The notes: a model not told the origin generated them from the letters alone. A stretch of 40,887 bases of DNA from Bacteroidales bacterium (GCA_017645985.1 JAGCNK010000207.1:1-40887); one strand, 5' to 3'. Shown: positions 628 through 38,591, numbered from the stretch's first letter. A program made the numbers and translations.

Positions 628-1758
628 ATGGCAAAGCAAAATATTTTTACAAGATTCGACAGCATAGTTAAAAACGCAGGTCTAGGCCGCAAGTATGCCT
701 TGCACGCCTATATGCGCTACACCGACCTGTTTACCAAAGAAGACCGCGAACAGGTAGAGAGTTTCCGTAAACTCTACAACGAAAGCGGCAACAACATTAC
801 AGTAATGGAGTCGGCAGGATATTCCGACAACCAAATTGACATAATCGACAGGTTTGTATCTTTTTGTCAAGGTTTGCCGAGCACACGGTTTACAGGTTGG
901 CTGAGATGGTTGTTTAGCCGCCGTCGTGCAATTAAAGAGCGCGAATACAAAGAACTCAATGGTTCGGCTAAGCAGGCTTCGTCGAAGAAAACTCGCAAAG
1001 CGTTTGAAACCGAGAACGATTTCTTGGAAAACCGATATTTTGACCAGCAGCAATATTTTAGCAATAAGTCAGGGCAATTTAAGAAAGATTACCATCACAA
1101 TCAAAAAAGAATTATGCTTTTTAGCGTATCTGTGTCGGTAATATCCGTGCTTTCGGTATTTGTGGGCAATTTGGTTTGCTCCATATTCCATTTCGAGAGT
1201 TCGCCTGAATGGTTAGTAAACGGATTTAGTCTGTTAGTGGCTGTAATTTCCGCTGTTACGGCTTATATATCGTCAAACGACAAACTTTGCCAGAATCTTG
1301 ATTTGTGGGTTCGTTTCCGTGTGGCAAGTGAAAAATTGAAATCGGAATACGCATTGTATCAAGGTCGTTGCGGCGACTACAATATTCCTGGCGACCATAA
1401 GGATGCCGCCGGACACACCGCTGCCGAAAAACGTTTCCGCGAGAATGTGGAGTCTATTGTGCAGGAAGCCAACGATAATTTCACCAAGATATTCCAGAAT
1501 GGTAACGGTAATTCTCAGCCTAACCCAGAAGAGCAGCACCATATTCCAGCCGCTCCAAAACCTGTGGCTCCGCCCCAGATTACAGAGTTAGAAACTAAGC
1601 CTGAAACTAAGCCAGAGAATGTTTCTGAAGATGTTTCTGAAAATGTTCCTGAAGATGCTCCTGGCGGCTATGGCGACGATAGAGCCACCGTATCTGACGA
1701 ACAGACTCCGCCACCTATTTCTGACGATGAGTTCGCAGAAGCGGATTCATTAGGATAG
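628..1758 (+). CDS. DUF4231/SLATT-like two-TM protein with an N-terminal extension and an acidic/proline-rich repeat tail
   Basis: RYFDQQQYFSNKSGQFKKDY is followed by two hydrophobic helices (IMLFSVSVSVISVLSVFVG and GFSLLVAVISAVTAYI) and then WVRFRVASEKLKSEYALYQG. From memory this is the DUF4231/SLATT layout. The ORF at 40346 is a clear paralog. Confidence 0.6.
   Translation: MAKQNIFTRFDSIVKNAGLGRKYALHAYMRYTDLFTKEDREQVESFRKLYNESGNNITVMESAGYSDNQIDIIDRFVSFCQGLPSTRFTGWLRWLFSRRRAIKEREYKELNGSAKQASSKKTRKAFETENDFLENRYFDQQQYFSNKSGQFKKDYHHNQKRIMLFSVSVSVISVLSVFVGNLVCSIFHFESSPEWLVNGFSLLVAVISAVTAYISSNDKLCQNLDLWVRFRVASEKLKSEYALYQGRCGDYNIPGDHKDAAGHTAAEKRFRENVESIVQEANDNFTKIFQNGNGNSQPNPEEQHHIPAAPKPVAPPQITELETKPETKPENVSEDVSENVPEDAPGGYGDDRATVSDEQTPPPISDDEFAEADSLG
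1591..1662 (+). repeat. Six tandem 12-nt units inside the SLATT-like CDS, encoding ETKP ETKP ENVS EDVS ENVP EDAP
   Basis: Read directly: gaaactaagcct gaaactaagcca gagaatgtttct gaagatgtttct gaaaatgttcct gaagatgctcct. Confidence 0.85.
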
Positions 1759-11428: not shown

Positions 11429-11716
11429 TTAATGTGTGTATTTCTGTTTTGCACGTCGTAGGGCTCTACGGATCTTGTAAAAGTTTGGCGGCGGCACGGG
11501 GTCGTATCCGTGCGTGCCCCAGGGATTGCAGCGCAAGATGCGCCAGGTGGCAAGTATTGTGCCGCGTATTATACCGTGATACTCAACAGCTTGCATAGCG
11601 TAAACCGAACATGTGGGGGTGTGACGGCAGGCGTCGGGCAGCCACGGCGAAATGCAGGCGCGGTAAAACCGTACCGGCAGAAGGTAGATTTGTCTAATTA
11701 CAGCCGCAAGATTCAT
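11429..11716 (-). CDS. yidD: Membrane protein insertion efficiency factor YidD
   Basis: [50 protein letters not shown] is the canonical YidD signature. Confidence 0.85.
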
Positions 11717-12368: not shown

Positions 12369-13055
12369 TTACTTGGCGTTTTTGGTGCGTGAAATTACAA
12401 ACTGGGCGAAGTTGATGTCGTCGAACGTGGTGATTTTGATGTTGTTTTTTTCGCCTTCGATAAGGTTGATGGTTTCGCCGTACTGCTCCACCACCGAGGC
12501 GTCGTCGGTAAACATCTGAGTGTAAGGCTGCTGGTATGCCTTGCGCAGAACGTCGGCGTGAAACACCTGAGGGGTCTGTATCAGTTTTACTGTGTTGCGG
12601 TCTATGATTTTGCTGCTGCCGTCGGCTGCCACGGTGCGTATCGATTCGGGCGGATTGATGCACGGCACGGCGTTGCCTTTGAGTGCCGCCTGGGTGTAGC
12701 ACTGCGCTATGCACGATACCGACACGAGAGGTCGCACTCCGTCGTGAACTCCCACAATGTCGACCTCGGGTCCGAGTGTGTCAACTGCGTTTTTTACCGA
12801 ATGAAACCGCTCTGCTCCGCCGTAGACATATCTGTAAGAGTCGGGACGGAGAAAAGGCTGCGAGAGTTTTCTCCAAAACTCACCGAGACCTTGCGGCAGC
12901 ACCAGTATCACCTCTATTTCGGGGTCGAAACTGCGAAACTGGTTTACAGTGCGGCACAGGATGGGCATGCCGTCGAGGTCAAGAAACTGTTTGGGCGTAC
13001 TCATACCCATGCGCAGGCCTTTGCCGCCTGCCACAATTATTACGGCGCGTTTCAT
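12369..13055 (-). CDS. ispD: 2-C-methyl-D-erythritol 4-phosphate cytidylyltransferase
   Basis: AVIIVAGGKGLRMGMSTPKQFL and VHDGVRP motifs. 228 aa. Confidence 0.9.
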   Translation of the reverse strand: MKRAVIIVAGGKGLRMGMSTPKQFLDLDGMPILCRTVNQFRSFDPEIEVILVLPQGLGEFWRKLSQPFLRPDSYRYVYGGAERFHSVKNAVDTLGPEVDIVGVHDGVRPLVSVSCIAQCYTQAALKGNAVPCINPPESIRTVAADGSSKIIDRNTVKLIQTPQVFHADVLRKAYQQPYTQMFTDDASVVEQYGETINLIEGEKNNIKITTFDDINFAQFVISRTKNAK

Positions 13056-13915
13056 CAGGCTGCGGGTGTGATGTTGTCAGATATGTACTGCGCCACGCGC
13101 TTGTTGATTTTTTCGGAGAGCAGCGCCATGTTGAAGTTCTTCTTCTCAAATGTGGCTAACTCTACAAGCGCCACGGTCTGCTTGCCGTAAACGAGCGGTA
13201 TAAATATAAGGTGTCGTGGCGAACCCTGACCAAGTCCTGAAACTACCACTTGGATGTAGTTTTCGGGAATGTTGTCGAGTTCGAGGGTCTTCTTGTCCTT
13301 GGCTACCTGACCGTTGATGCCTTCGCCGATTTCGAATGTGCGGTCGGTGTCGGGCGTGTAGTATGCGTAGGTGCTTTTGATTTCGTACTTTCCGATTTTG
13401 GGATTGAGCGCGTAAGCCACACCCTGCACAATGTCGAACACTTTGGCAAAGTTGCTGAGCAGCTTGTCGAAATATTCGTTGAGGTCGGCAGTCTGTTCCA
13501 GGTCGGCGGCAATCTGGTTTGCCACCTGGTCGAGGTGCTTGTTTTCCTCCGCCTCGCGTTTGGCTTTCTGCTGTTTCTCCTGGCGGGCCTTCTCCTGCTT
13601 TATTTCCTCGTTGTTGTCGTCGGCATCGCTGCGTGCGTTGGCTAGGTCGTCGGAGTTTACTCTGTCGGTAGAGCCTTTTACAGAGAGGAAGTCGAGCTGC
13701 GACTCGGTAACGCTTGCCTGGTGGAATATTTTCTTGGCGTAGGCAGTAGTGGCGGCTGCCCATATAGCCGAAACCGCCGCAAATCCCAGGAGTATGTTTT
13801 TATAGTACTCTTGAAGTTGCGGTATCAAGGCGGCTGTAATCACCGCTACGCACACCACAATCCATATTGTGAGCGCAGTAGCTATATTTTTTTTGGCCTT
13901 GTCGAATTTTTTCAT
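13055..13915 (-). CDS. Two-TM protein with an E/Q/K-rich coiled-coil linker and a C-terminal GAF-like domain
   Basis: The TM helices are IATALTIWIVVCVAVITAALI and ILLGFAAVSAIWAAATTAYA. The linker is EEIKQEKARQEKQQKAKREAEENKHLDQVANQIAADLEQTADL. The C-terminus (FAKVFDIVQGVAYAL...GEGINGQVAKDKKTLELDNIP...IFIPLVYGKQTVALVELATF) has a GAF-like pattern. Its stop overlaps the ispD start (TGATG). Confidence 0.65.
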   Translation of the reverse strand: MKKFDKAKKNIATALTIWIVVCVAVITAALIPQLQEYYKNILLGFAAVSAIWAAATTAYAKKIFHQASVTESQLDFLSVKGSTDRVNSDDLANARSDADDNNEEIKQEKARQEKQQKAKREAEENKHLDQVANQIAADLEQTADLNEYFDKLLSNFAKVFDIVQGVAYALNPKIGKYEIKSTYAYYTPDTDRTFEIGEGINGQVAKDKKTLELDNIPENYIQVVVSGLGQGSPRHLIFIPLVYGKQTVALVELATFEKKNFNMALLSEKINKRVAQYISDNITPAA

Positions 13916-13925
13916 GGTATGATCG

Positions 13926-14480
13926 TCATTTAAGGTTTTTCAAAAAGTCAATTATCTCGTTTGTTACCATTATGTGGTCTACTTCGGTGGCTTTGATGGC
14001 AGCCGTGGTCATTGTCTTTACCTGGCATTCGTCGGGCGACTGCACTATCACCGTGCCTCCGGCGTCTTTGATGGCCTTGAGCCCGAGGGCGCCGTCCTTG
14101 TTGGCTCCTGAGAGCAGTATTCCCACCGAGTCGGTTTTGAAGGTTTTGGCTATCGAAAAGAATGTTACGTCGATCGACGGCCGCGAATGGTTTACAGGTT
14201 CTTCTGTTGATAGCGAAAACTGGTTGTTGGCGTCAACGTACATGTGATAGTTGGCTGGAGCGAGGTAAGCTATGCCCGGCATCACGGTGTCTTTGTCGAA
14301 AGGCTCGCAAATCGGTATGTTTGATTTAAGCGATAGTGCCTCCACAAATCCGCCCCTGACGTTTTTGAGACGGTGCAGGCATAGGAAAATAGTGTGAGGG
14401 TAGTTGCGCGGTATGCTCGATAGCAACGCCGTCACCGTTTGAAAGCTTCCTGCCGATCCTCCTATTACAATGTTGCCCAT
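13926..14480 (-). CDS. cheB: CheB-type protein-glutamate methylesterase, catalytic domain only (no receiver domain)
   Basis: 184 aa starting directly with MGNIVIGGSAGS. The Ser, His and Asp contexts are GGSAGS, FLCLHR and LSGANKDGALG, plus NHSRPSIDV. Confidence 0.8.
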   Translation of the reverse strand: MGNIVIGGSAGSFQTVTALLSSIPRNYPHTIFLCLHRLKNVRGGFVEALSLKSNIPICEPFDKDTVMPGIAYLAPANYHMYVDANNQFSLSTEEPVNHSRPSIDVTFFSIAKTFKTDSVGILLSGANKDGALGLKAIKDAGGTVIVQSPDECQVKTMTTAAIKATEVDHIMVTNEIIDFLKNLK

Positions 14481-14487
14481 AACCTTT

Positions 14488-15321
14488 TTACTTTTGAACT
14501 TTTACAAAAATGTTTTCGTTTTTCGACACCGGGATAAATGTTCCACGGTAGTCGCATCCGCTGAGATTCTCGCGTATGCCTATTATGAAGTATCCGCCGC
14601 TGACGATGGTCTTGGCAAGGTTGTCAACCACCATTTTCTTGGTCTGGACGTTCATGTATAGCATACGGTCGCGAAACAGCACAAGGTTGAATCCGTTGTC
14701 GGGCGGAGGAGTGCTGATGATGTCGCCTTTGAGGAATATGACGTTGTCGAGCAGCTGCGACGAAAAATAGTCGTATTTGTCTTCTCGGGTGAGATAGTGA
14801 GTCAGTTCGGCGTCCGGGTCTATTTTTTTGAAGTTTGCCGAGCTGATTTCTAATTTCTTCTGGTCGATGAATCCGCTTTTGGCGTCGTTGAGTATCTTGT
14901 GGATGGGCGATGTGGCGTATACAGTGCACCGGTTGAGGATGCGTTTGCGGTGGAGAATCACCAGCAGCGAGTAGAGCTCGTCGTCGCCGCATATCTGGGG
15001 AATCCATATTTTGCAGAGCGTCTCGTTTTTGAGTTTCTCCACAATGTTGTCTTCCAGAAACTTCCACATAGAGTAGTCGCGAAACATCTCGGTTGTAGGC
15101 ACGAATATTTCCGACACGAACAGGTCGGCAAAGTAGTTGTCGGCCATAAGCTTGTTTACGAGGCGGTCGGGAGTCTGCACGCCGTGCATATACATCGACC
15201 TTGTCATACGGTGCATAAGGATGTCTTGCGAGTAGTACGAGAAGTCTACGTCGCGGAGCGTGCGCACTGTCGAAATGATTTTTCTGAAATCCTCGTGTGG
15301 TATGTTAAGAAATTCGTCCAT
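14488..15321 (-). CDS. CheR-like protein with a degenerate SAM-binding motif
   Basis: It has the CheR fold landmarks (TTEMFRD and the N-terminal helical domain). However, motif I reads IWIPQICGDDELYS instead of W-x-AGCSTGEE-x-YS, ATD is replaced by ATSP, and the post-motif reads VLFRDRMLYMN. Confidence 0.7.
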   Translation of the reverse strand: MDEFLNIPHEDFRKIISTVRTLRDVDFSYYSQDILMHRMTRSMYMHGVQTPDRLVNKLMADNYFADLFVSEIFVPTTEMFRDYSMWKFLEDNIVEKLKNETLCKIWIPQICGDDELYSLLVILHRKRILNRCTVYATSPIHKILNDAKSGFIDQKKLEISSANFKKIDPDAELTHYLTREDKYDYFSSQLLDNVIFLKGDIISTPPPDNGFNLVLFRDRMLYMNVQTKKMVVDNLAKTIVSGGYFIIGIRENLSGCDYRGTFIPVSKNENIFVKVQK

Positions 15322-15324
15322 AGC

Positions 15325-16185
15325 CTAAAACACTTTTTTGTTGTAAATCAGACCTTTCTTTTCGTACTTTACGCTCGTTGGGCCGATGATGCTCTCATGT
15401 ATTCCCAGCACGAGCGATCCGTATGTGTCGAGGTAATTCCAAAAATCAATAAACAGCTTGTTTTGCAGTGTGTTGTTGAAGTAAATCAGTACATTGCGGC
15501 ACAAAATGATGTCGTACGACACGTTGAAAGGGTTGGGGTCGGTAACGAGGTCGTGCTTTTTGAAAATTGCCTTGTCGAGAAATTCGCGCTTTATTTTAAA
15601 GGTGTCTTTCACCTTGTTGATGTCGAAATATTTCTCGTATGTTACCACAAGATGCTCGTCGAAGTTGTAAGGATTTTCGCACAGCACCTTGTTGAAGTTG
15701 TCGAGATATTCAGACACCGACCTGTAGCTGTATACGCCCGACTGGGCGGTTTTGATTACGTCGGTGTTGAGGTCGGTGGCGTAGATGTTGCAACGGTGAA
15801 GCATGTTCATCTCGTTGAGCAGTATTATCATAGAGTACACCTCCTGACCTGTGGAGCATCCTGCGTGCCAGATGTTGATTTCGCGCTTGCTTGCAAGGCG
15901 TGGCAGTATGCGGTATTTGATTGCGTGCCATACCTGAGGGTCGCGAAACAGCTCGGTGGTGTTTACAGTGATGTCTCTGACCACCTGCTCCAAAAACAGA
16001 CGGTCTTCTTTAACTTTGGCTATCAGCTTCGACAGGTCAAGTTTGTAGTCCATCATCACCTTTTCCACCCGCCTTAGAAACGATTTTTCGGAGTAGTTGG
16101 CAAAATCGTATCCAGCGTAGTCGCGCAAGGTTCTAATAAGTGTCAGTATGTTAGGGTCTTCAAACATTTTTCTATAAGTATACAT
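15325..16185 (-). CDS. cheR: CheR-type protein-glutamate O-methyltransferase
   Basis: TTELFRD, INIWHAGCSTGQEVYS, IYATDLN and IILCRNVLIYF motifs. I prefer the ATG at 16185 (MYTYRKMFEDPN) to the TTG at 16206. Confidence 0.85.
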   Translation of the reverse strand: MYTYRKMFEDPNILTLIRTLRDYAGYDFANYSEKSFLRRVEKVMMDYKLDLSKLIAKVKEDRLFLEQVVRDITVNTTELFRDPQVWHAIKYRILPRLASKREINIWHAGCSTGQEVYSMIILLNEMNMLHRCNIYATDLNTDVIKTAQSGVYSYRSVSEYLDNFNKVLCENPYNFDEHLVVTYEKYFDINKVKDTFKIKREFLDKAIFKKHDLVTDPNPFNVSYDIILCRNVLIYFNNTLQNKLFIDFWNYLDTYGSLVLGIHESIIGPTSVKYEKKGLIYNKKVF

Positions 16186-16220
16186 GCCCCCCTGGGGCTT
16201 TTGCAAAAAAAATTATAGTT

Positions 16221-16228
16221 CAAATATA
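16221..16228 (-). promoter_or_regulatory. -7 box TATATTTG upstream of the cheR operon
   Basis: The reverse complement of caaatata is TATATTTG. It lies about 36 nt upstream of the ATG at 16185. Confidence 0.4.
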
Positions 16229-16287: not shown

Positions 16288-17325
16288 TTAATAGACGTCG
16301 CGTTCGTAGCCGAGCATGGGCGGAACCATCTGGGTTCTGTTGCCGCTTACGCCGATGGCTTTTAGAGCGGGCAGGTTTTGCAGCAACTCGGGAAATTGAG
16401 CGAAAAGATTGTTGCAGAGGTTGAGGTCGTAAAGGTTCTCAAATTTTACCACTTCGTTGGGCAGACGTGTGAGCCTGTTGTTGCTCAGGTCAAGGAACAC
16501 AAGGCTTGTGAGCTTGGTGATGTCGGTGGGCACGGTTGTGAGGCTGTTGTGGCTGAGTATCAGACGCTGAAGGTTGTACAATTGCGATATTCTTGTGGGA
16601 ACCGACATCAAGCCGCATCCCGAGAGCGACAATCTGGTGAGTGTGGTGATGTTGCATATCTGCGTCATGTCGCGTATCTTGTTGTTGTCTAAGTATAACA
16701 CTTTGAGCGACTTGAAGTTGGCTACCGTGGTGGGCAGCGATGCTATTGTGTTGCCGGCAAGCATCAGCACCTCAAGGTCTTTGAGGTTGGTGAGTGCGCC
16801 CTGGAATGCTGTTATCTTGTTGAACGAGAGGTCTAACTCTTTGAGCGACTTCATATTAGAAATCGTTGCGGGGATGACTGTAATCAGGTTGTTTGACAAT
16901 GTGGCAGATTCGAGCTGCGTGCAGTTGGTTAGCTGCGCCATTTCGCTTATGCGGTTGTTGGCTAAGGAGATGCGTTTCAATTTTTTGAGTCCTGCCACCT
17001 CGCCAGGTATGCGTGCTATGGCGTTCTGGTCGGCAAAGATGAACCTCAGTTCGGTAAGCTGAAACAACTGAGGCGGCAATGTGGTGAGCGTGTTGCCCTG
17101 TATGTATATGGCTTTGAGGTTTTTGAGCTGGGCTATGTCGGCGGGCAGCGACGATATGCCCTGGTTGCTCAGGTCGAGCACCTCGGCTTTGTCGGCGTTA
17201 GAGAGCGCCTCTTCTACCGATGTGTATGCTATCTGTTTGGCAAGCCACTGGTCGTTGTAGTCCTGCGCGTATGTGGCGGCAACGGCTGTGAGCGTTATTG
17301 CGAGCGATAAGATAAGTCTTTTCAT
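16288..17325 (-). CDS. Secreted leucine-rich repeat (LRR) protein
   Basis: Signal peptide MKRLILSLAITLTAVAATYAQ, then about a dozen roughly 23-residue LxxLxLxxNxLxxLP repeats (for example LKELDLSFNKITAFQGALTNLKDLEVLMLAGNTIASLP). Confidence 0.8.
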   Translation of the reverse strand: MKRLILSLAITLTAVAATYAQDYNDQWLAKQIAYTSVEEALSNADKAEVLDLSNQGISSLPADIAQLKNLKAIYIQGNTLTTLPPQLFQLTELRFIFADQNAIARIPGEVAGLKKLKRISLANNRISEMAQLTNCTQLESATLSNNLITVIPATISNMKSLKELDLSFNKITAFQGALTNLKDLEVLMLAGNTIASLPTTVANFKSLKVLYLDNNKIRDMTQICNITTLTRLSLSGCGLMSVPTRISQLYNLQRLILSHNSLTTVPTDITKLTSLVFLDLSNNRLTRLPNEVVKFENLYDLNLCNNLFAQFPELLQNLPALKAIGVSGNRTQMVPPMLGYERDVY

Positions 17326-17326
17326 T

Positions 17327-18109
17327 TTAATTGTCATTTTCTGAATTAAACATATTATTAACAAAACAAATATAATGCCTATATTTTGAGCGGCTGTGCT
17401 TTTTGGCGCAGTCGGAGGCGTTTTTGATTCCTCCGAGATAATAACGTTGAAACCACGGCAAAACGCATAAAATTGCAGTCCAATTGCCGTAATTTTTTGC
17501 CAAATATACTCCGAGCATTGCCAGCGACCCCAGAATCACCTCCGACGACACGCCGTCTATCACACTCAGCGACATATACTGCCCAAGTCCAGGCACTATG
17601 GCGCTTGCCACGCCTGCCACCGCCGGCGACGGTTTCGACTTCTTTTGCCATTTTTTCGACAGTTTCAAAAACTCGTCGCGGCGTTCTTCTGGCAGTGATT
17701 TTAGAAAGCATTCAGTTGATTTGTCGTACTGACCGAGACAGTAGTAGCAGATGCCCAGACGTCGGTTCACTTCGTTTTGGATGCTGGGTTCGGCGGCGGT
17801 GTCTGCTTGCATAAGCGAAGCCACGGCGTTGAAGTATTTTTTTGCTGCGATATAGATATCGGCTTTTGTAATAAGAACTTTACTACGCTCGTCCTGGGTG
17901 GCGGCGTAGAGGTATGCCTGATTGATGAACATCTCGGCAAGACGGAGGTTTTCTGCCTCGGACGATAGCTGTGCGGCGGCTATATAGTTCTGGTTGCTGG
18001 TGTGCAATGTGTCGAACAGTATGGCACGCTGCAACTCTTTGAACTGGTTTTGTGCGCTAACCGTTAGGCTAAAAAAGATTATCGTGCATATAGTCCACAA
18101 TTTGTTCAT
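17327..18109 (-). CDS. Signal peptide plus TPR-like helical region plus C-terminal DUF5683-like membrane segment
   Basis: Signal peptide MNKLWTICTIIFFSLTVSAQ. TPR-like helices such as LGICYYCLGQYDKSTECFLKSL. SAIVPGLGQY is followed by hydrophobic helices. It has the same architecture as the upstream gene. Confidence 0.55.
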   Translation of the reverse strand: MNKLWTICTIIFFSLTVSAQNQFKELQRAILFDTLHTSNQNYIAAAQLSSEAENLRLAEMFINQAYLYAATQDERSKVLITKADIYIAAKKYFNAVASLMQADTAAEPSIQNEVNRRLGICYYCLGQYDKSTECFLKSLPEERRDEFLKLSKKWQKKSKPSPAVAGVASAIVPGLGQYMSLSVIDGVSSEVILGSLAMLGVYLAKNYGNWTAILCVLPWFQRYYLGGIKNASDCAKKHSRSKYRHYICFVNNMFNSENDN

Positions 18110-18869
18110 CGTGCTTTTTCTTTATTGTGTTGTTGTATTTGTTTACCGACTTGGCTGTGCCGAATATGTTGCCCACATAAAAGCAAGCCGACAATGACGC
18201 AAAAAATAGCGGATAAGGGTCTTTGTAACCATATTTGTGAAATCCGTACGCCACGTGTGCCAGTTCAAAACCGCTCCGCAGCAGAGCCATGATGCCTTCG
18301 CGAACGTAGCCGCAGTAGATACGTCCCGAGCCTGGCAATACCGCCGACATTGAAACGGCTATCAGCATAGATTTTTGGTCTAATTTCTTTTGACAGAATG
18401 ATTTGACTTCGGGTGTCAGCAGCGGATTGTTGATGTCGGCGGGTGTCTGGTTGATAACCGCCAGGCAGTTTTTTATGTTTGTGCCTTTGATGGTGTATGG
18501 CGATTGCAGCGAGTCGCAAAACGTGTATGCCTTGGCGTATTCACCCGAGTTTATCAGTAGTTTTACATAGTGGAAATAATATCCAGGTTGAGTTTGGCAT
18601 TGCGGCAGAATGTATTTTTCAAAGGTCTTTTCGGCATTTTTGTAGTCATAGATAATTGAATAACAGTCTATTGTTTTGAATGCGTAATCTAAACTATTGC
18701 TGCAAGTGCTGTCGGCAAGGCGTGCATACTCCTCGGCGGCAAACTGGTATTGCTGTGTGTTGTACAGATATTCGGCAAAAATTCTGGTGTGCGTGGTGTC
18801 GTAGAGGTTTTGCGCTGCGCACATCTGCGCCGTGAGGCATAATAATATTGCTATGGCGGCGTGTTTCAT
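18069..18869 (-). CDS. Signal peptide plus TPR-like helical region plus C-terminal DUF5683-like membrane segment (paralog)
   Basis: Signal peptide MKHAAIAILLCLTAQMCAAQ. Helical repeats (FAAEEYARLADS, YKNAEKTFEKYI, GEYAKAYTFCDSL). SAVLPGSGRIYCGYVREGIMALL is followed by a second hydrophobic helix. Confidence 0.55.
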   Translation of the reverse strand: MKHAAIAILLCLTAQMCAAQNLYDTTHTRIFAEYLYNTQQYQFAAEEYARLADSTCSNSLDYAFKTIDCYSIIYDYKNAEKTFEKYILPQCQTQPGYYFHYVKLLINSGEYAKAYTFCDSLQSPYTIKGTNIKNCLAVINQTPADINNPLLTPEVKSFCQKKLDQKSMLIAVSMSAVLPGSGRIYCGYVREGIMALLRSGFELAHVAYGFHKYGYKDPYPLFFASLSACFYVGNIFGTAKSVNKYNNTIKKKHDEQIVDYMHDNLF

Positions 18870-19828
18870 TGCTTTCTTTTCAATGGATAGTCGATTAGCA
18901 GTCCGTCGTTGCCTTGAAGGTAGCCCGGCTTGTTGATTCCGCTGCAGCGAAGCAGTCGGTCAAACGTGTCGGCAAAGCCGTAGAAGAATCCGTTTTGACT
19001 GAAAGTCATCTGGCTGTAATGCGAGCAGGAAGGGTAAAAACTACATCTCTGTATGTCCTGGGGCGATATTACACGTCGGTAAAATGCGAACAGCGGGTTG
19101 AGGCTTGTTTCTTCGTATTCTTCGCATTTTTGAGGTGCGGTGCTGATGGGTGTTACGCATTGTAACTGAGCGGTATCACCGTCTACAACTACGTTGGTGT
19201 AGATGGTTTTGGTGTATATTTCGCCGTTGCCGCTTGCCACCGACACTATCTGTGTGGGAAAATCTATTCCGTCAACGTTGATGTAGTTGTAGTAGAATGT
19301 CCTTACCATCGGGCTGCCTTTGCGGTTGAGCATCACTGCTGCGCTGAGGCGGTTGTCGGCTTGTGAAATGATGATTTTGCATACCAGTCCCGACGATGTG
19401 TCTGCGTAGTTTTCGGGAAGTGAATATTCGGTAAGCACTGCTCCGTTGCGCCAGGAAACGTCGGTAATGTGGTAGTTAAAATCTTCTGCGCCGCCGTTGC
19501 CTATTGTTCCCATTATGGCCTGATATGGCAGCGATGATTTCAGTAGCGACGAGTCAACACTGATTTCGGCTTGCTTGTGGTTGTTTTGCCATTGGGCCAT
19601 TTTGTCGAAGGTGAGTTCCACAGTGTAGACCGCTGGGTAGATGTAGCTTGTGGTGAGGGTGTTGTTTCGGCTGTTGAATGATACACGGCCTTTGGCTACG
19701 TGGTTGATGGTGGCTCCGTCGGTGGTTTCTTCGGTAAAGTCGGCTGAAAGCGAATAGTGCAGTTGTGCAAACGCAGATCCTCCGGCGGCAAGTAAGACTG
19801 TAAGCGCGATTATTTTACCGACAGCCAT
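18866..19828 (-). CDS. Exported beta-rich protein with a C-terminal YidD-like domain
   Basis: Signal peptide MAVGKIIALTVLLAAGGSAFAQ and a beta-rich region of about 230 aa. The C-terminus FAFYRRVISPQDIQRCSFYPSCSHYSQMTFSQNGFFYGFADTFDRLLRCS matches the YidD signature (Y-x2-ISP, C-x-F-x-P-[ST]-CS-x-Y, R-x-x-RC). Confidence 0.7.
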   Translation of the reverse strand: MAVGKIIALTVLLAAGGSAFAQLHYSLSADFTEETTDGATINHVAKGRVSFNSRNNTLTTSYIYPAVYTVELTFDKMAQWQNNHKQAEISVDSSLLKSSLPYQAIMGTIGNGGAEDFNYHITDVSWRNGAVLTEYSLPENYADTSSGLVCKIIISQADNRLSAAVMLNRKGSPMVRTFYYNYINVDGIDFPTQIVSVASGNGEIYTKTIYTNVVVDGDTAQLQCVTPISTAPQKCEEYEETSLNPLFAFYRRVISPQDIQRCSFYPSCSHYSQMTFSQNGFFYGFADTFDRLLRCSGINKPGYLQGNDGLLIDYPLKRKQ

Positions 19829-20238
19829 TTGGCGAGTCCTCCCACAGCCGCGCCCGTGAGGCAGCCGTAAATAGCCAGTTTCACCTCGCGCCTGTCGCCG
19901 TGCTTGCAGGCGTAAACAATTGCCACAGCTATGGGACCCGCGCCCGCTCCGTAGAGCGTGTATGTGCCTACTGCCGATACCAAGGCTGTGAACACAAAGG
20001 TGGGCATACGTCCCGGCATTGCGCTTTGCGGATAAAGATTCACCATAGCGAAATTGTTAAACTCCGCTGTGTTGCAGCCGTTATTTGAAGCGATGGTTTC
20101 AATCTCGCAGGCTATGCTGTCGGCGGTGGCAAATTTTTCGGTAAGTCCGCTGTCAGAAAACCAGTCGGGGTCGGTGCCGTCGGCATAAACCACCGATGCC
20201 ACAAAGATTAACGATAATATGGCTGCTAACTTTTTCAT
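19810..20238 (-). CDS. Small signal-peptide protein with a glycine-zipper membrane C-terminus
   Basis: I prefer the start at 20238 (MKKLAAILSLIFVASVVYADG). The C-terminal segments FVFTALVSAVGTYTLYGAGAGPIAVAIVYA and LAIYGCLTGAAVGGLAKWL are Gly/Ala-rich. The track's 61-aa N-terminal extension overlaps the upstream gene and looks spurious. Confidence 0.5.
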   Translation of the reverse strand: MKKLAAILSLIFVASVVYADGTDPDWFSDSGLTEKFATADSIACEIETIASNNGCNTAEFNNFAMVNLYPQSAMPGRMPTFVFTALVSAVGTYTLYGAGAGPIAVAIVYACKHGDRREVKLAIYGCLTGAAVGGLAKWLSVK

Positions 20239-20239
20239 T

Positions 20240-20734
20240 CTATTTTGATTGTGAAATGCGCTCGCGGTTGGCGTTGATATACTTGTTGAGTGTGCGTTCA
20301 AGCAGTTCGATGTCTTCTGCCGACAAGGCGGTGATGTTAAACGAAGGATAGGTGAACTCTTGCAGCTGCTTTTCCTTGTTGTATCCGCGCACTGTGATGG
20401 ATATCTTTTTCTGCAGACCAAAAAAGCTCTTGGTGATGGTGTATTTGTGCAGCAGTTTTTTCTTGATGTTGAACGACAGGCAGCGGCGAAACAGCGGATA
20501 TGCCGTGTAGCGTTTTACTACTATCGGGTCTTTGTCGTCGTCGAAACTGAAATACGAGGGATTGATCAACAGCAGTACAATGTGAGCCACCACCATCACT
20601 CCGCAGATAATCAGGCAGGTTTTCATATTGTACTTGTCGAAATAGATATATGCCAATGAACCAATCGCCAGCAGTCCCGAAATGATATATGCCAGGCGAT
20701 ATTTTGATGTAGTTAAATTATTGTCTATAAACAT
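20240..20734 (-). CDS. Two-TM membrane protein with a small C-terminal soluble domain
   Basis: The TM helices are YRLAYIISGLLAIGSLAYIYF and CLIICGVMVVAHIVLLLI. A strand-rich domain of about 95 aa ends in a helix (SAEDIELLERTLNKYI); a bacterial PH-like fold is only a guess. Confidence 0.5.
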   Translation of the reverse strand: MFIDNNLTTSKYRLAYIISGLLAIGSLAYIYFDKYNMKTCLIICGVMVVAHIVLLLINPSYFSFDDDKDPIVVKRYTAYPLFRRCLSFNIKKKLLHKYTITKSFFGLQKKISITVRGYNKEKQLQEFTYPSFNITALSAEDIELLERTLNKYINANRERISQSK

Positions 20735-22077: not shown

Positions 22078-23358
22078 ATGTCATATTTTTTCACATCAGA
22101 ATCAGTTTCTGAGGGACATCCCGACAAAGTGGCAGATCAGATTTCTGACGCACTTTTGGACGAATTTTTAAAACAGGACTCAGAAAGCAAGGTGGCTTGC
22201 GAAACTTTCGTTACCACCGGTCTTGCCGTTTTGGGTGGCGAGGTAAAAACAGAGGCTTATGTCGACGTGCAGCAGACTGCCCGCGACGTTATCAACCGAA
22301 TCGGCTACACCAAAGGCGAATATATGTTTGACGGCAACAGCTGCGGCGTGATTTCGGCTATCCACGGTCAGAGCCAGGATATCAACCGAGGCGTTGAGCG
22401 CGAAGACCTTGACAATCAAGGCGCTGGCGACCAGGGTATGATGTTCGGCTACGCTGTTAAAGAGTCGCAGAACCTTATGCCTTATAGCATCGAGCTGGCT
22501 CACAAGCTGCTTATCGAACTTGCAGCCATCCGCCGCGAGGGTAAGGAGATGACTTATCTCCGTCCCGACAGCAAGAGCCAGGTAACTATCGAATACGGCG
22601 ACAACAATGTTGCAAAACGTATCGACACTATCGTTATCTCTACTCAGCACGACGAGTTTATTAAGGCCGATACTGCCAAAAAACAGCTCAAGGCCGACAA
22701 GGATATGGTGGCAAAAATCACCGAGGATGTCCGCGACATTCTCATCCCCCGTCTTCTTAAAAAGCTCAGCGCCAAAGAAAAAGCTCTTTTCAAGGGCGAC
22801 TACAAACTGTTGGTTAACCCCACTGGCAAGTTTGTTATCGGCGGACCTCACGGCGATACCGGCCTCACAGGACGCAAGATTATCGTTGACACCTACGGCG
22901 GCAAGGGCGCACACGGCGGCGGAGCTTTCTCGGGCAAAGACCCCTCAAAGGTAGACCGCAGCGCAGCATACGCTACACGCCATATTGCCAAAAACTTAGT
23001 GGCAGCCGGCATTGCCGACGAGTGCTTGGTGCAGGTGGCTTACGCTATCGGCGTGGCTCAGCCCGTGGGCTTGTATGTTAACACTTACGGCACAAGCAAG
23101 GTAAAAATTAGCGACGGCGAAATTGCTGAGAAACTTCTCAAGATTTTCGACCTCCGTCCCGCCGCTATTATCCGCAGATTGAAACTTAAAAACCCAATCT
23201 TCTTGGATACAGCTGCTTACGGACATTTCGGCCGCGAACCTTACTCCAAAAAAGTGGAAGTTATCGAAAACGGCAAAAAGGTGAAAAAAGAGGTTGAGTT
23301 CTTCACTTGGGAAAAACTCGACTATGTGGACACTCTCAAAAAGGAGTTCGCCATTTAA
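22078..23358 (+). CDS. metK: S-adenosylmethionine synthetase
   Basis: [33 protein letters not shown] and [19 protein letters not shown] motifs. 426 aa. Confidence 0.95.
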
Positions 23359-37466: not shown

Positions 37467-38591
37467 TTATTTAAAAAAGTTTTTGAATATGTGACGTTTT
37501 CTCTTTTTCTTGTGCTGGTCTTTCATCCGTTTGTCGGTTTTCTTGTGGTGCTTTTTCATCTCTTTCATCTTCTTGGTGTCCTGAATCTGAAGAAGCGCCT
37601 TTTTGGCCTTTTTGTAGTGCTTGGCGTCGGCGATGCGCTGTTTGCGCTGCTCACGTTCCAGTTCGCGTTTCTCTTTGGTTTTGAGTTCGCCGCCGTGAGC
37701 CGCACGCAGGCGCAGTTCTTTCTTGCGGTCTTCTTCCGCCTTTACCTTCTGCTCTTTCTTGGCCTGTTTCTCGCGGATTTTTGCGTTCTTTTCGTGGTCT
37801 ATGTGTCCGTCGCCAGAGCTCTTTTTGAACTCCTTGGTGGCTTTCTTGATTTTTTTCTGCTTTTCGAGCTCCTCGGGCGTCAGGTCTTTTTTCTTTTTCT
37901 TCGCCTCCTTGGCGGCGGCTTTCTCTTCTTTCTTCTTGGCCTTCTTGTCCACCTCCTCGGGCTCGTCTACCACTACTTGCTTCTTGGGCGTGCGGTCAAC
38001 GTTTTCAAATTCGAGACTTTCGCCCTCGTTTACAAACTCGTCTTCGGTGCGGAAGTCGGCGTCGAGATCCTGCACTTCGTCCTCGTCGGTTTCGGGCAGT
38101 TTCTTTTTCTTTTTCTCCTTCTCTTTCTTTTTTTCTTCCTTGGCTTTCTGTTTCAGAGCCTTCTTGTCTTCCACGGCTTCTCCGTCTTCGCCTTTGGCTT
38201 CGGCTTTCTCTTTCTTTTTCAGGGCTTTCTGCTCTTTTTTGGAGAGTTCGGGTTCGCCGTTTTCGTCGAGTTCTGGCTCGGTTTCGGCTTTCTGGGCATC
38301 CTTGATGGCTTTCTTCTCGGCTTTTTCGGCGGCTTTCTTGTCTTTTTTCACCTTCTTCTTTTCCAGCTTGGCTTTTTTCTTCTTGTATTTTTTCGAGAGG
38401 CGTTTTTTCTTCTTATTAGAAAGACCTTTTTCGATCAAAAAACCGTCCTGAGAGTACTGACTGCCGCTTGGAGCCACGTCGGCGGAGGGGTTGAACTTGC
38501 CAAAGTCGGGCCCTTGCGCCTCAGCTACGCCGAGCGACGAAATGAGTATTATTAGCGATAAAAATATAGTTTTTATGTATGATGCCTTCAT
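37467..38591 (-). CDS. Signal-peptide protein dominated by K/E/A low-complexity sequence
   Basis: MKASYIKTIFLSLIILISSLGVAEAQG is followed by about 340 aa of KKKKRLSKKYKKKKAKLEKKKVKKDKKAAEKAEKK-type sequence. The coding strand is inferred from the signal peptide and from the operon partner 10 nt downstream. Confidence 0.55.
   Translation of the reverse strand: MKASYIKTIFLSLIILISSLGVAEAQGPDFGKFNPSADVAPSGSQYSQDGFLIEKGLSNKKKKRLSKKYKKKKAKLEKKKVKKDKKAAEKAEKKAIKDAQKAETEPELDENGEPELSKKEQKALKKKEKAEAKGEDGEAVEDKKALKQKAKEEKKKEKEKKKKKLPETDEDEVQDLDADFRTEDEFVNEGESLEFENVDRTPKKQVVVDEPEEVDKKAKKKEEKAAAKEAKKKKKDLTPEELEKQKKIKKATKEFKKSSGDGHIDHEKNAKIREKQAKKEQKVKAEEDRKKELRLRAAHGGELKTKEKRELEREQRKQRIADAKHYKKAKKALLQIQDTKKMKEMKKHHKKTDKRMKDQHKKKRKRHIFKNFFK

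Follow-up and report, generated by a model that had tools for sequence, protein, structure and literature searches.

A conserved CheR-CheR-CheB-GAF gene block of uncultured Bacteroidales, possibly a methylation module for chemoreceptors

Organization of the four-gene block

We describe here a block of four genes coding for two CheR-family proteins (CheR1 and CheR2), a CheB methylesterase domain, and a transmembrane (TM) protein with a GAF domain (TM-GAF), found in DNA from a Bacteroidales bacterium (GCA_017645985.1, JAGCNK010000207.1:1-40887). The whole stretch of 40,887 nt is referred to as the window, and all window coordinates are counted from its first letter. The four open reading frames (ORFs) lie on the minus strand at 13055-16206 in the order CheR1, CheR2, CheB, TM-GAF, with spacers of 3, 7, and 10 nt, and the TGA stop codon of TM-GAF shares one nucleotide with the ATG start codon of ispD (TGATG, 13053-13057). 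The CheR1 frame can be opened at a TTG codon (16206), but an ATG at 16167 (giving 280 amino acids, aa) or at 16185 is more likely to be used; many homologues measure 279-281 aa, and we therefore place the start at 16167. Upstream lies a candidate promoter box, TATATTTG (Table 1). Such TAnnTTTG-type boxes number 49 in the window, compared with 29 expected, so that the box alone is weak evidence, consistent with a promoter.

There is no Rfam match within the block, and short repeats occur there only at chance level. Val/His-rich ORFs run antisense to it (14899-16077, plus strand, 392 aa, opposite CheR1 and CheR2; 12558-13190; 13146-13763), and these we regard as spurious, their composition being typical of shadow ORFs.

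Table 1. Coordinates of the block, its neighbors, and related features at other loci.
Feature	Location	Strand	Match or remark
CheR1, protein-glutamate O-methyltransferase, S-adenosylmethionine (SAM) motifs intact	15325..16206	-	PF01739 8.9e-39
CheR2, divergent CheR paralogue, SAM-binding site degenerate	14488..15321	-	PF01739 1.2e-19
CheB, catalytic domain only, 184 aa	13926..14480	-	PF01339 3e-47
TM-GAF, membrane protein with two TM helices, long charged helix, and GAF domain	13055..13915	-	GAF_2 2.7e-7
ispD	12369..13055	-	PF01128 4e-45
Candidate Bacteroidetes-type -7 box TATATTTG	16221..16228	-	Within the 81-nt gap from the leucine-rich repeat gene to CheR1
Signal-peptide leucine-rich repeat (LRR) protein	16288..17364	-	LRR_4 1e-39, LRR_8 1e-37
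HAMP-MCP receptor gene	L001 13778-15886	-	
Ten-gene long-form cluster	L003 10799-18965 (and 44-54 other long-form loci)		
~800-aa protein of the third form	L030 5106-7520; L041 3172-5574; L046 764-3166		

Products of the block

CheR1 is a clear CheR homologue (133 bits to PF01739) whose best solved relative is the Bacillus subtilis CheR (5FTW, 5.4e-30). The motifs TELFRD, AGCSTGQE, ATD, and CRNVLIYF are near-invariant among 75 orthologues, and the protein thus has both motif I and the ribose-binding Asp that define class I SAM-dependent methyltransferases. CheR2 is more distant (71 bits; 4.6e-13 to 5FTW) and lacks both of these features family-wide: across 74 orthologues the AGCSTG of motif I is replaced by P-E/D-V-S-S-G (PQICGDD in the window copy), and the ribose-binding Asp is Ser in 55 of them. 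TEMFRD is retained in nearly all of the 74, and the Arg-Asn pair is present in 65, the window's CheR2 having Arg-Asp at this position. The N-terminal CheR_N model (PF03705) scores 19-20 bits in both proteins, under its 27-bit cut-off; their alignments to 5FTW begin at residues 12/28 (CheR1) and 12/20 (CheR2) and cover the N-terminal region. The NCBIfam equivalog models for CheR and CheB match only at a sub-threshold level.

The methylesterase domain of CheB (161 bits) fills residues 4-179 of 184 and matches 3SFT and 1CHD, each at 1.6e-23. When aligned to 1CHD, the Ser, His, and Asp columns of the catalytic triad are invariant in 80/80 orthologues. These are 183-191 aa long and leave no room for a receiver (REC) domain, and the usual control of CheB by CheA is therefore impossible.

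TM-GAF has a GAF domain by both profile (GAF_2, 31 bits against a 28.6-bit cut-off) and predicted fold. An AlphaFold2 model (pLDDT 81.5) has helices at 2-30, 32-78, and 90-136, a low-confidence segment at 80-87, and the GAF domain at 145-282; we read the first two helices as TM segments at the N-terminus, the low-confidence segment as a disordered hinge, and the third helix as a charged one of 47 residues. The GAF fold is generic and resembles the GAF domains of PtsP, NifA-like proteins, and fRMsr (Foldseek probability 1.0). Homologues are almost confined to uncultured Bacteroidales. A profile search of 1.84 billion representatives returned 710 clusters at 50% identity (E<=1e-30), and nearly all of the best 150 clusters are ~245-290 aa in length.

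No other chemotaxis gene was found in the window. Pfam scans of 36 further window ORFs gave housekeeping or unknown families only, and neither a histidine kinase nor CheA is among the window genes; six-frame phmmer searches with queries for methyl-accepting chemotaxis protein (MCP), SpoIIE, SiaB, and SiaC had no match, nor did a probe with Escherichia coli CheW. The closest locus is in a yak-rumen Bacteroidales metagenome-assembled genome (MAG), with 98% identity in CheB and 97% in QueA.

This description bears out most of an original prediction that had been made for the same DNA. The four packed minus-strand genes with their ispD overlap are as it gave them, and the TAnnTTTG box is present upstream, although the motif is common in the window and hence weak. 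Each motif that it quoted for CheR1 and CheB is in the translations, CheR2 is degenerate in a family-conserved manner, CheB has no receiver, and the Pfam match and AlphaFold2 model support the protein with two TM helices, an E/Q/K-rich helix, and a GAF domain. The statement that cheA, cheW, cheY, and MCP genes are missing from the 40 kb also holds, and the nearest locus supports the proposed Bacteroidales origin.

Conservation as a unit

The prediction depended on the block being conserved as a unit, which proved to be the case across Bacteroidales. One genome per species was scanned, yielding 80 species-level loci, all of them in MAGs (rumen, gut, sediment, bioreactor). The CheB gene directly precedes the TM-GAF gene in 80/80 loci. 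Of the 75 loci whose contigs extend far enough upstream, 72 have two CheR genes ahead of CheB and hence all four genes in order. The spacers have medians of 20, 9, and 6 nt, the last being that between CheB and TM-GAF.

Purifying selection on each of the four genes is strong. Their dN/dS values (computed against three relatives) lie at 0.01-0.10, comparable to ispD: 0.03-0.06 for CheR1, 0.05-0.08 for CheR2, and 0.01-0.05 for CheB. CheR2 is ancient and selected, probably a non-catalytic paralogue, and it is not a decaying gene, since its dN/dS is low and its motif changes are family-wide. The degenerate CheR2, the missing CheB receiver, and the lack of Che core genes in the window could also be read as signs that the block is a decaying, functionless remnant of a lost chemotaxis system. 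This is extremely improbable, however, as the ORFs are intact and of constant length in the species-level loci where contigs reach them, the catalytic residues are invariant, and the changes in CheR2 are ancient; we regard decay as ruled out by the dN/dS values.

Genomic forms of the block

The block occurs in several genomic contexts. A short form, to which the window belongs, is present in ~20 gut and rumen species and has the order (LRR)-CheR1-CheR2-CheB-TMGAF-ispD(-tdk-yidD). These species form one clade in a neighbor-joining tree of CheB, whose uncertain rooting does not show whether the short or the long form came first. The ispD gene directly follows the block in 19 loci and is probably co-transcribed with it in the gut/rumen clade, where the neighborhood gives no sign of a functional link. 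In 16 loci of this clade and in L038, the gene directly 5' of CheR1 codes, in the same orientation, for an LRR homologue, and in L012 such a homologue is 10 kb away. The LRR protein is fast-evolving (33-92% identity) and may be either a member of the module or a surface protein with its own promoter.

In the long form (~54 of the 80 species) genes related to siaA, siaB, and siaC of Pseudomonas aeruginosa follow the block directly, in the same orientation and with short spacers. The first codes for an 870-aa TM-GAF-PAS-PAS-SpoIIE (PP2C) protein, to whose sensor part TM-GAF is paralogous (phmmer 1e-9 to 1e-20). A DUF6272 protein matches P. aeruginosa SiaB (6KKO_A, 3.9e-15), and a SiaC homologue matches 6KKO_C (1.2e-16). 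In 44 of the 54 loci, a TerB-ABC transporter gene and a further two conserved ORFs come next. In the resulting ten-gene cluster the tail consists of the transporter (~1020 aa) and proteins of 317 and 150 aa without a Pfam match. About 13 long-form loci have, between CheR1 and CheR2, a gene for a Cache-HAMP-GAF-PAS-PAS TM receptor lacking an output domain (e.g. L067 5841-8219, plus strand). The SiaABC-type switch belongs to the wider family and not to the window, where none of the six reading frames matched it.

A few loci have other neighbors; among them is a third form without SiaABC, which has a protein of ~800 aa with no Pfam match encoded directly 5' of CheR1 on the same strand (Table 1). 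A cultured host of the module was sought through the 'Draconibacterium' MAG lineage, which gave metagenomic proteins only.

Chemoreceptors in related genomes

The original prediction took the organism to be without MCPs, a premise that fails for its relatives. Assembly GCA_016293845.1 (MAG027) contains both a short-form block (L006, JAEDDH010000013), with products 88% (CheR1), 89% (CheB), and 80% (TM-GAF) identical to those of the window and a QueA at 93%, and receptors with HAMP and MCPsignal domains (L089, JAEDDH010000001). GCA_045597465.1 (SGB_3926, JAZLKG01) likewise contains a block (L015) together with HAMP and MCPsignal receptors (L092). In two further species with the short form (L001/L018 and L016), a gene for a HAMP and MCPsignal protein of 702-714 aa is located 3 kb from the block.

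The block-linked MCP has a canonical hairpin tip, four canonical methylation sites, and a Pro/Ala/Lys-rich tail that ends in EFERF at the C-terminus. It belongs to a family that is very large in Bacteroidales MAGs: the tip is canonical in all of the best 120 homologues, most of which have about three sites of the form [ASTG][ASTG]xx[EQ][EQ]xx[ASTG][ASTG], and 106 of these 120 best-scoring proteins carry a C-terminal [DE][FY]E[RKS]F. This fits the x-aromatic-x-x-aromatic pattern (x[FY]xxF) of the pentapeptide that serves as a tether for CheR and CheB, and receptors with a pentapeptide were earlier reported to be abundant in Bacteroidetes (PMC7390727). Orthologues of the MAG027 MCP, 72-97% identical, are present in sister MAGs, and for two of them the synteny was shown to be the same. 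With MCPs in both close relatives and sister MAGs, the organism of the window is likely to have them too.

The MCP genes are often arranged in tandem arrays of two to four (L085, L087, L089, and L090), which frequently follow a pair of CTP_transf_like and radical SAM genes. A stand-alone Hpt-domain protein of 118 aa (1.8e-6) is encoded beside clpB in two gut Bacteroidales contigs that carry MCPs (L086 21059-21415, L089 21110-21466 (-)), and L086 has two orphan SiaC genes as well.

Candidate substrates of the module

We put the chance at about even that the block serves a Bacteroidales chemoreceptor system as its methylation (adaptation) module, acting on MCPs and without control through a CheA-phosphorylated receiver. 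MCPs are favored as the substrate since CheR1 has kept its motifs near-invariant and CheB its triad invariant, the genes are under selection, and MCPs occur in the same assemblies or contigs. They are further favored by the distribution of acceptor sites. The MCPs have methylation sites and a tether, whereas the canonical consensus is essentially absent from proteins of the module and its Sia-type neighbors (1/80 TM-GAF, 0/51 SiaA-like, 0/47 SiaB, and 0/45 SiaC proteins) in a scan that recovered four sites in the neighboring MCP as positive control.

In this model, of which the substrate, the inactivity of CheR2, and every role of TM-GAF are what we infer, CheR1 would methylate Glu/Gln sites of HAMP-MCP receptors encoded elsewhere in the genome, and the receiver-less CheB, presumably constitutively competent, would demethylate or deamidate the same sites. 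The receptors would recruit both enzymes by the [DE][FY]E[RKS]F pentapeptide on their flexible Pro/Ala/Lys-rich tail. CheR2, with its SAM signature lost, could be a non-catalytic receptor-binding or regulatory subunit, and TM-GAF a membrane-anchored sensor or scaffold providing the control that phosphorylation from CheA to the CheB receiver provides classically. Alternatively, TM-GAF may couple the module to a SiaA/B/C-type partner switch.

The original prediction had instead proposed a module for reversible modification of a non-MCP substrate, independent of CheA. The conserved unit, the intact CheR1 and CheB, and the missing CheB receiver uphold the module; the MCPs in relatives and the lack of an acceptor motif in the module's own proteins speak against the proposed kind of substrate. 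In the most direct version of that proposal, CheR1 and CheB would modify TM-GAF itself or the paralogous GAF modules of the SiaA-like phosphatase and the Cache-HAMP-GAF-PAS receptor, with methylation tuning a GAF-sensor pathway. Gene arrangement is in agreement with this, in that the CheB-TM-GAF adjacency is universal and tight, TM-GAF and the SiaA-like sensor part are paralogues, and the long-form CheR genes are interleaved with GAF-module receptors and have no MCP within 10 kb; the predicted 47-residue E/Q/K-rich helix would also be accessible. Nevertheless, we consider it rather unlikely. Apart from the near absence of the methylation consensus, neither the length nor the sequence of the charged helix is constant; P0028 has lost part of it, and in many long-form members a conserved Pro breaks it. 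An alignment of linker and GAF regions of the TM-GAF, SiaA-like, and Cache-type proteins has no common E/Q motif and only GAF core motifs, the conserved E/Q residues of the TM-GAF domain being generic motifs of the GAF fold. Moreover, canonical tether-bearing MCP substrates are available in the same genomes.

Several observations weigh against MCPs as the substrate. The MCPs are known from assemblies of relatives only, with none in the window, and all 54 long-form loci are free of MCP genes for 10 kb around the block, the only receptor-like genes in the cluster encoding GAF-module proteins. The coupling of TM-GAF to CheB is tighter than any link to an MCP. These genomes may also contain further CheR or CheB paralogues. 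By inspection, CheR1 appears to be without the Gly-rich beta-subdomain loop that enteric CheR uses for binding NWETF. CheA and CheW are also absent from the loci covered, as described below.

A possible CheA-independent pathway

According to Pfam listings, CheA and CheW are absent from the window, the 80 species-level loci, and nine distinct MCP neighborhoods, all of them genome fragments. A probe of ~1.5 Mb of related loci with E. coli CheW gave 0 matches, which is weak evidence. The original prediction held that a complete Che pathway elsewhere in the genome would make these ordinary adaptation enzymes, and half of such a pathway has now been found: MCPs are present in relatives, with neither CheA nor CheW in the fragments covered.

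Genes of the Sia type are found near MCPs as well as after the block. In the gut clade, L091 has SiaC and an ABC gene orthologous to the long-form one (6e-268) beside an MCP gene, and in L092 the orthologous ABC gene and SiaC lie 7.5 kb from one. PP2C genes are near MCPs in L090 and L092, and SiaC is 7 kb from the block in L001. Neighborhoods thus connect the module with Sia and ABC genes (long form), MCPs with ABC and SiaC genes (gut clade), and MCPs with the module (L016/L018), closing a triangle of linkages.

These linkages raise the prospect of a CheA-independent pathway in which MCPs and/or GAF-module receptors, adapted by CheR1, CheR2, and CheB, would signal via TM-GAF to a switch of SiaA (PP2C), SiaB (kinase), and SiaC (phosphoprotein), with the TerB-ABC transporter, a candidate SiaC output replacing SiaD, at its end; the window would then hold the adaptation half only. 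The Sia-type genes directly downstream of the block in most species, their matches to the solved SiaB and SiaC, the frequency of the transporter, and the lack of CheA and CheW in every neighborhood covered are all consistent with such a pathway. We nonetheless think it unlikely. The MCP hairpin tips are fully canonical, which is normally a mark of CheA/CheW binding, the CheA/CheW absence derives from ~1.5 Mb of fragments and an E. coli CheW query, gene neighborhood is circumstantial, and the window has no SiaA, SiaB, or SiaC gene.

Comparison with described systems

CheR1 and CheB are clearly homologous to the canonical enzymes of E. coli/Salmonella and B. subtilis (1AF7, 5FTW, 1CHD, 3SFT) and retain every catalytic residue. 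Their likely substrates are of the canonical kind too, being MCPs whose methylation sites are canonical and whose C-terminus bears an aromatic pentapeptide as a tether. Unlike those systems, the block has a CheB without a receiver, an obligatory second CheR with a degenerate SAM site, and a TM-GAF gene that is likewise obligatory. The genes cheA, cheW, and cheY are present neither in the cluster nor in the neighborhoods seen, and the operon is shared with the housekeeping gene ispD or with a Sia-type switch.

A CheB without a REC domain is also found in the F3 systems of Campylobacterota (PMC9239204), where it similarly works with a separate CheR. However, the defining features of F3 systems are a core operon, cheVAW, and a fusion of CheA with REC, neither of which is seen here, and they have no pseudo-CheR or GAF partner. 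The closest described CheA-less contexts for CheB and CheR are MAC1 and MAC2, which, as summarized from Wuichet & Zhulin 2010 (bioRxiv 10.1101/2022.05.07.491037), combine CheR and CheB with a signaling protein that is neither an MCP nor CheA, are experimentally uncharacterized, and in some organisms occur with no other Che system; we compared them by their description in that summary. On that description a MAC protein joins a receptor-like coiled coil to a histidine-kinase module, and in this respect the block differs: Pfam and methylation-motif scans of the block, the window, and the extended clusters found no HisKA, HATPase_c, or MCP-like coiled coil.

The SiaABCD system of P. aeruginosa (PMC7647112, PMC8457831; 6KKO, 6K4F) resembles the long form in that homologues of its PP2C phosphatase, SiaB, and SiaC follow the block in most species. 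It differs in that the Bacteroidales loci have an ABC transporter and no SiaD diguanylate cyclase, and the sensor of their phosphatase is of the TM-GAF-PAS-PAS rather than the HAMP type. The Pseudomonas system, for its part, has no known CheR or CheB, and the window has no Sia genes. In Bacteroidales SiaC, a Thr aligns with the Thr of the LNTSS segment, which we take to be T68 of SiaC. A literature search turned up no paper on the four-gene module or on its link with Sia genes, in keeping with the original prediction, to which no characterized system of this composition was known.

Other features of the window

The remaining window genes are mostly housekeeping genes (atpG, greA, uppP, panC, queA, truB, tdk, ispD, aroB, metK, dnaB, accA, and a radA-like gene) together with unknowns; small ORFs in the gaps resemble HIT, PanD, and RbfA by inspection only. 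The sole Rfam match in the window is a SAM-II long-loop riboswitch (RF01726, 21960-22020, plus strand, 62.7 bits, E 7e-10) directly 5' of metK (22078-23358). The distance from this riboswitch to the CheR operon, which also makes use of SAM, is 6 kb; their proximity is probably a coincidence.

Upstream of the LRR gene is a five-gene minus-strand group (17327-20734) that is kept in the nearest relatives and encodes a TPR/membrane protein, three ORFs without a Pfam match, and a 320-aa protein with a C-terminal YidD domain (18866-19828), the second YidD domain in the window beside the stand-alone yidD at 11429-11716. At 37467-38591 (minus strand) a 374-aa signal-peptide protein without a Pfam match consists almost entirely of Lys/Glu/Asp low-complexity sequence and accounts for a strong AT-skew anomaly at 36-39 kb; a 354-aa ORF overlapping it on the opposite strand is probably spurious. 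A 376-aa protein (628-1758, plus strand) has a DUF4231 domain at residues 152-257 (1.7e-8) with unassigned regions on either side. DUF4231 (SLATT-like) proteins are often found in conflict systems.

Implications

Gut and rumen Bacteroidales are, to our knowledge, usually regarded as being without chemosensory signaling. They nonetheless carry a conserved and selected methylation module, relatives carry families of tether-tailed MCPs, and many environmental Bacteroidales have this module in physical linkage with a partner switch of the SiaABC type. Should MCPs be the substrate, the block would represent the adaptation branch of an unstudied receptor system, within an order that is both dominant and host-associated, and the branch would include a conserved pseudo-CheR. 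If instead a GAF module is the substrate, or the Sia switch the output, reversible Glu methylation would extend beyond CheA-based pathways, and the Sia-type pathway, if true, would be a chemosensory architecture in which a Ser/Thr phospho-switch replaces the histidine kinase. Either way, the four small genes and a defined receptor family provide concrete parts that can be tested.

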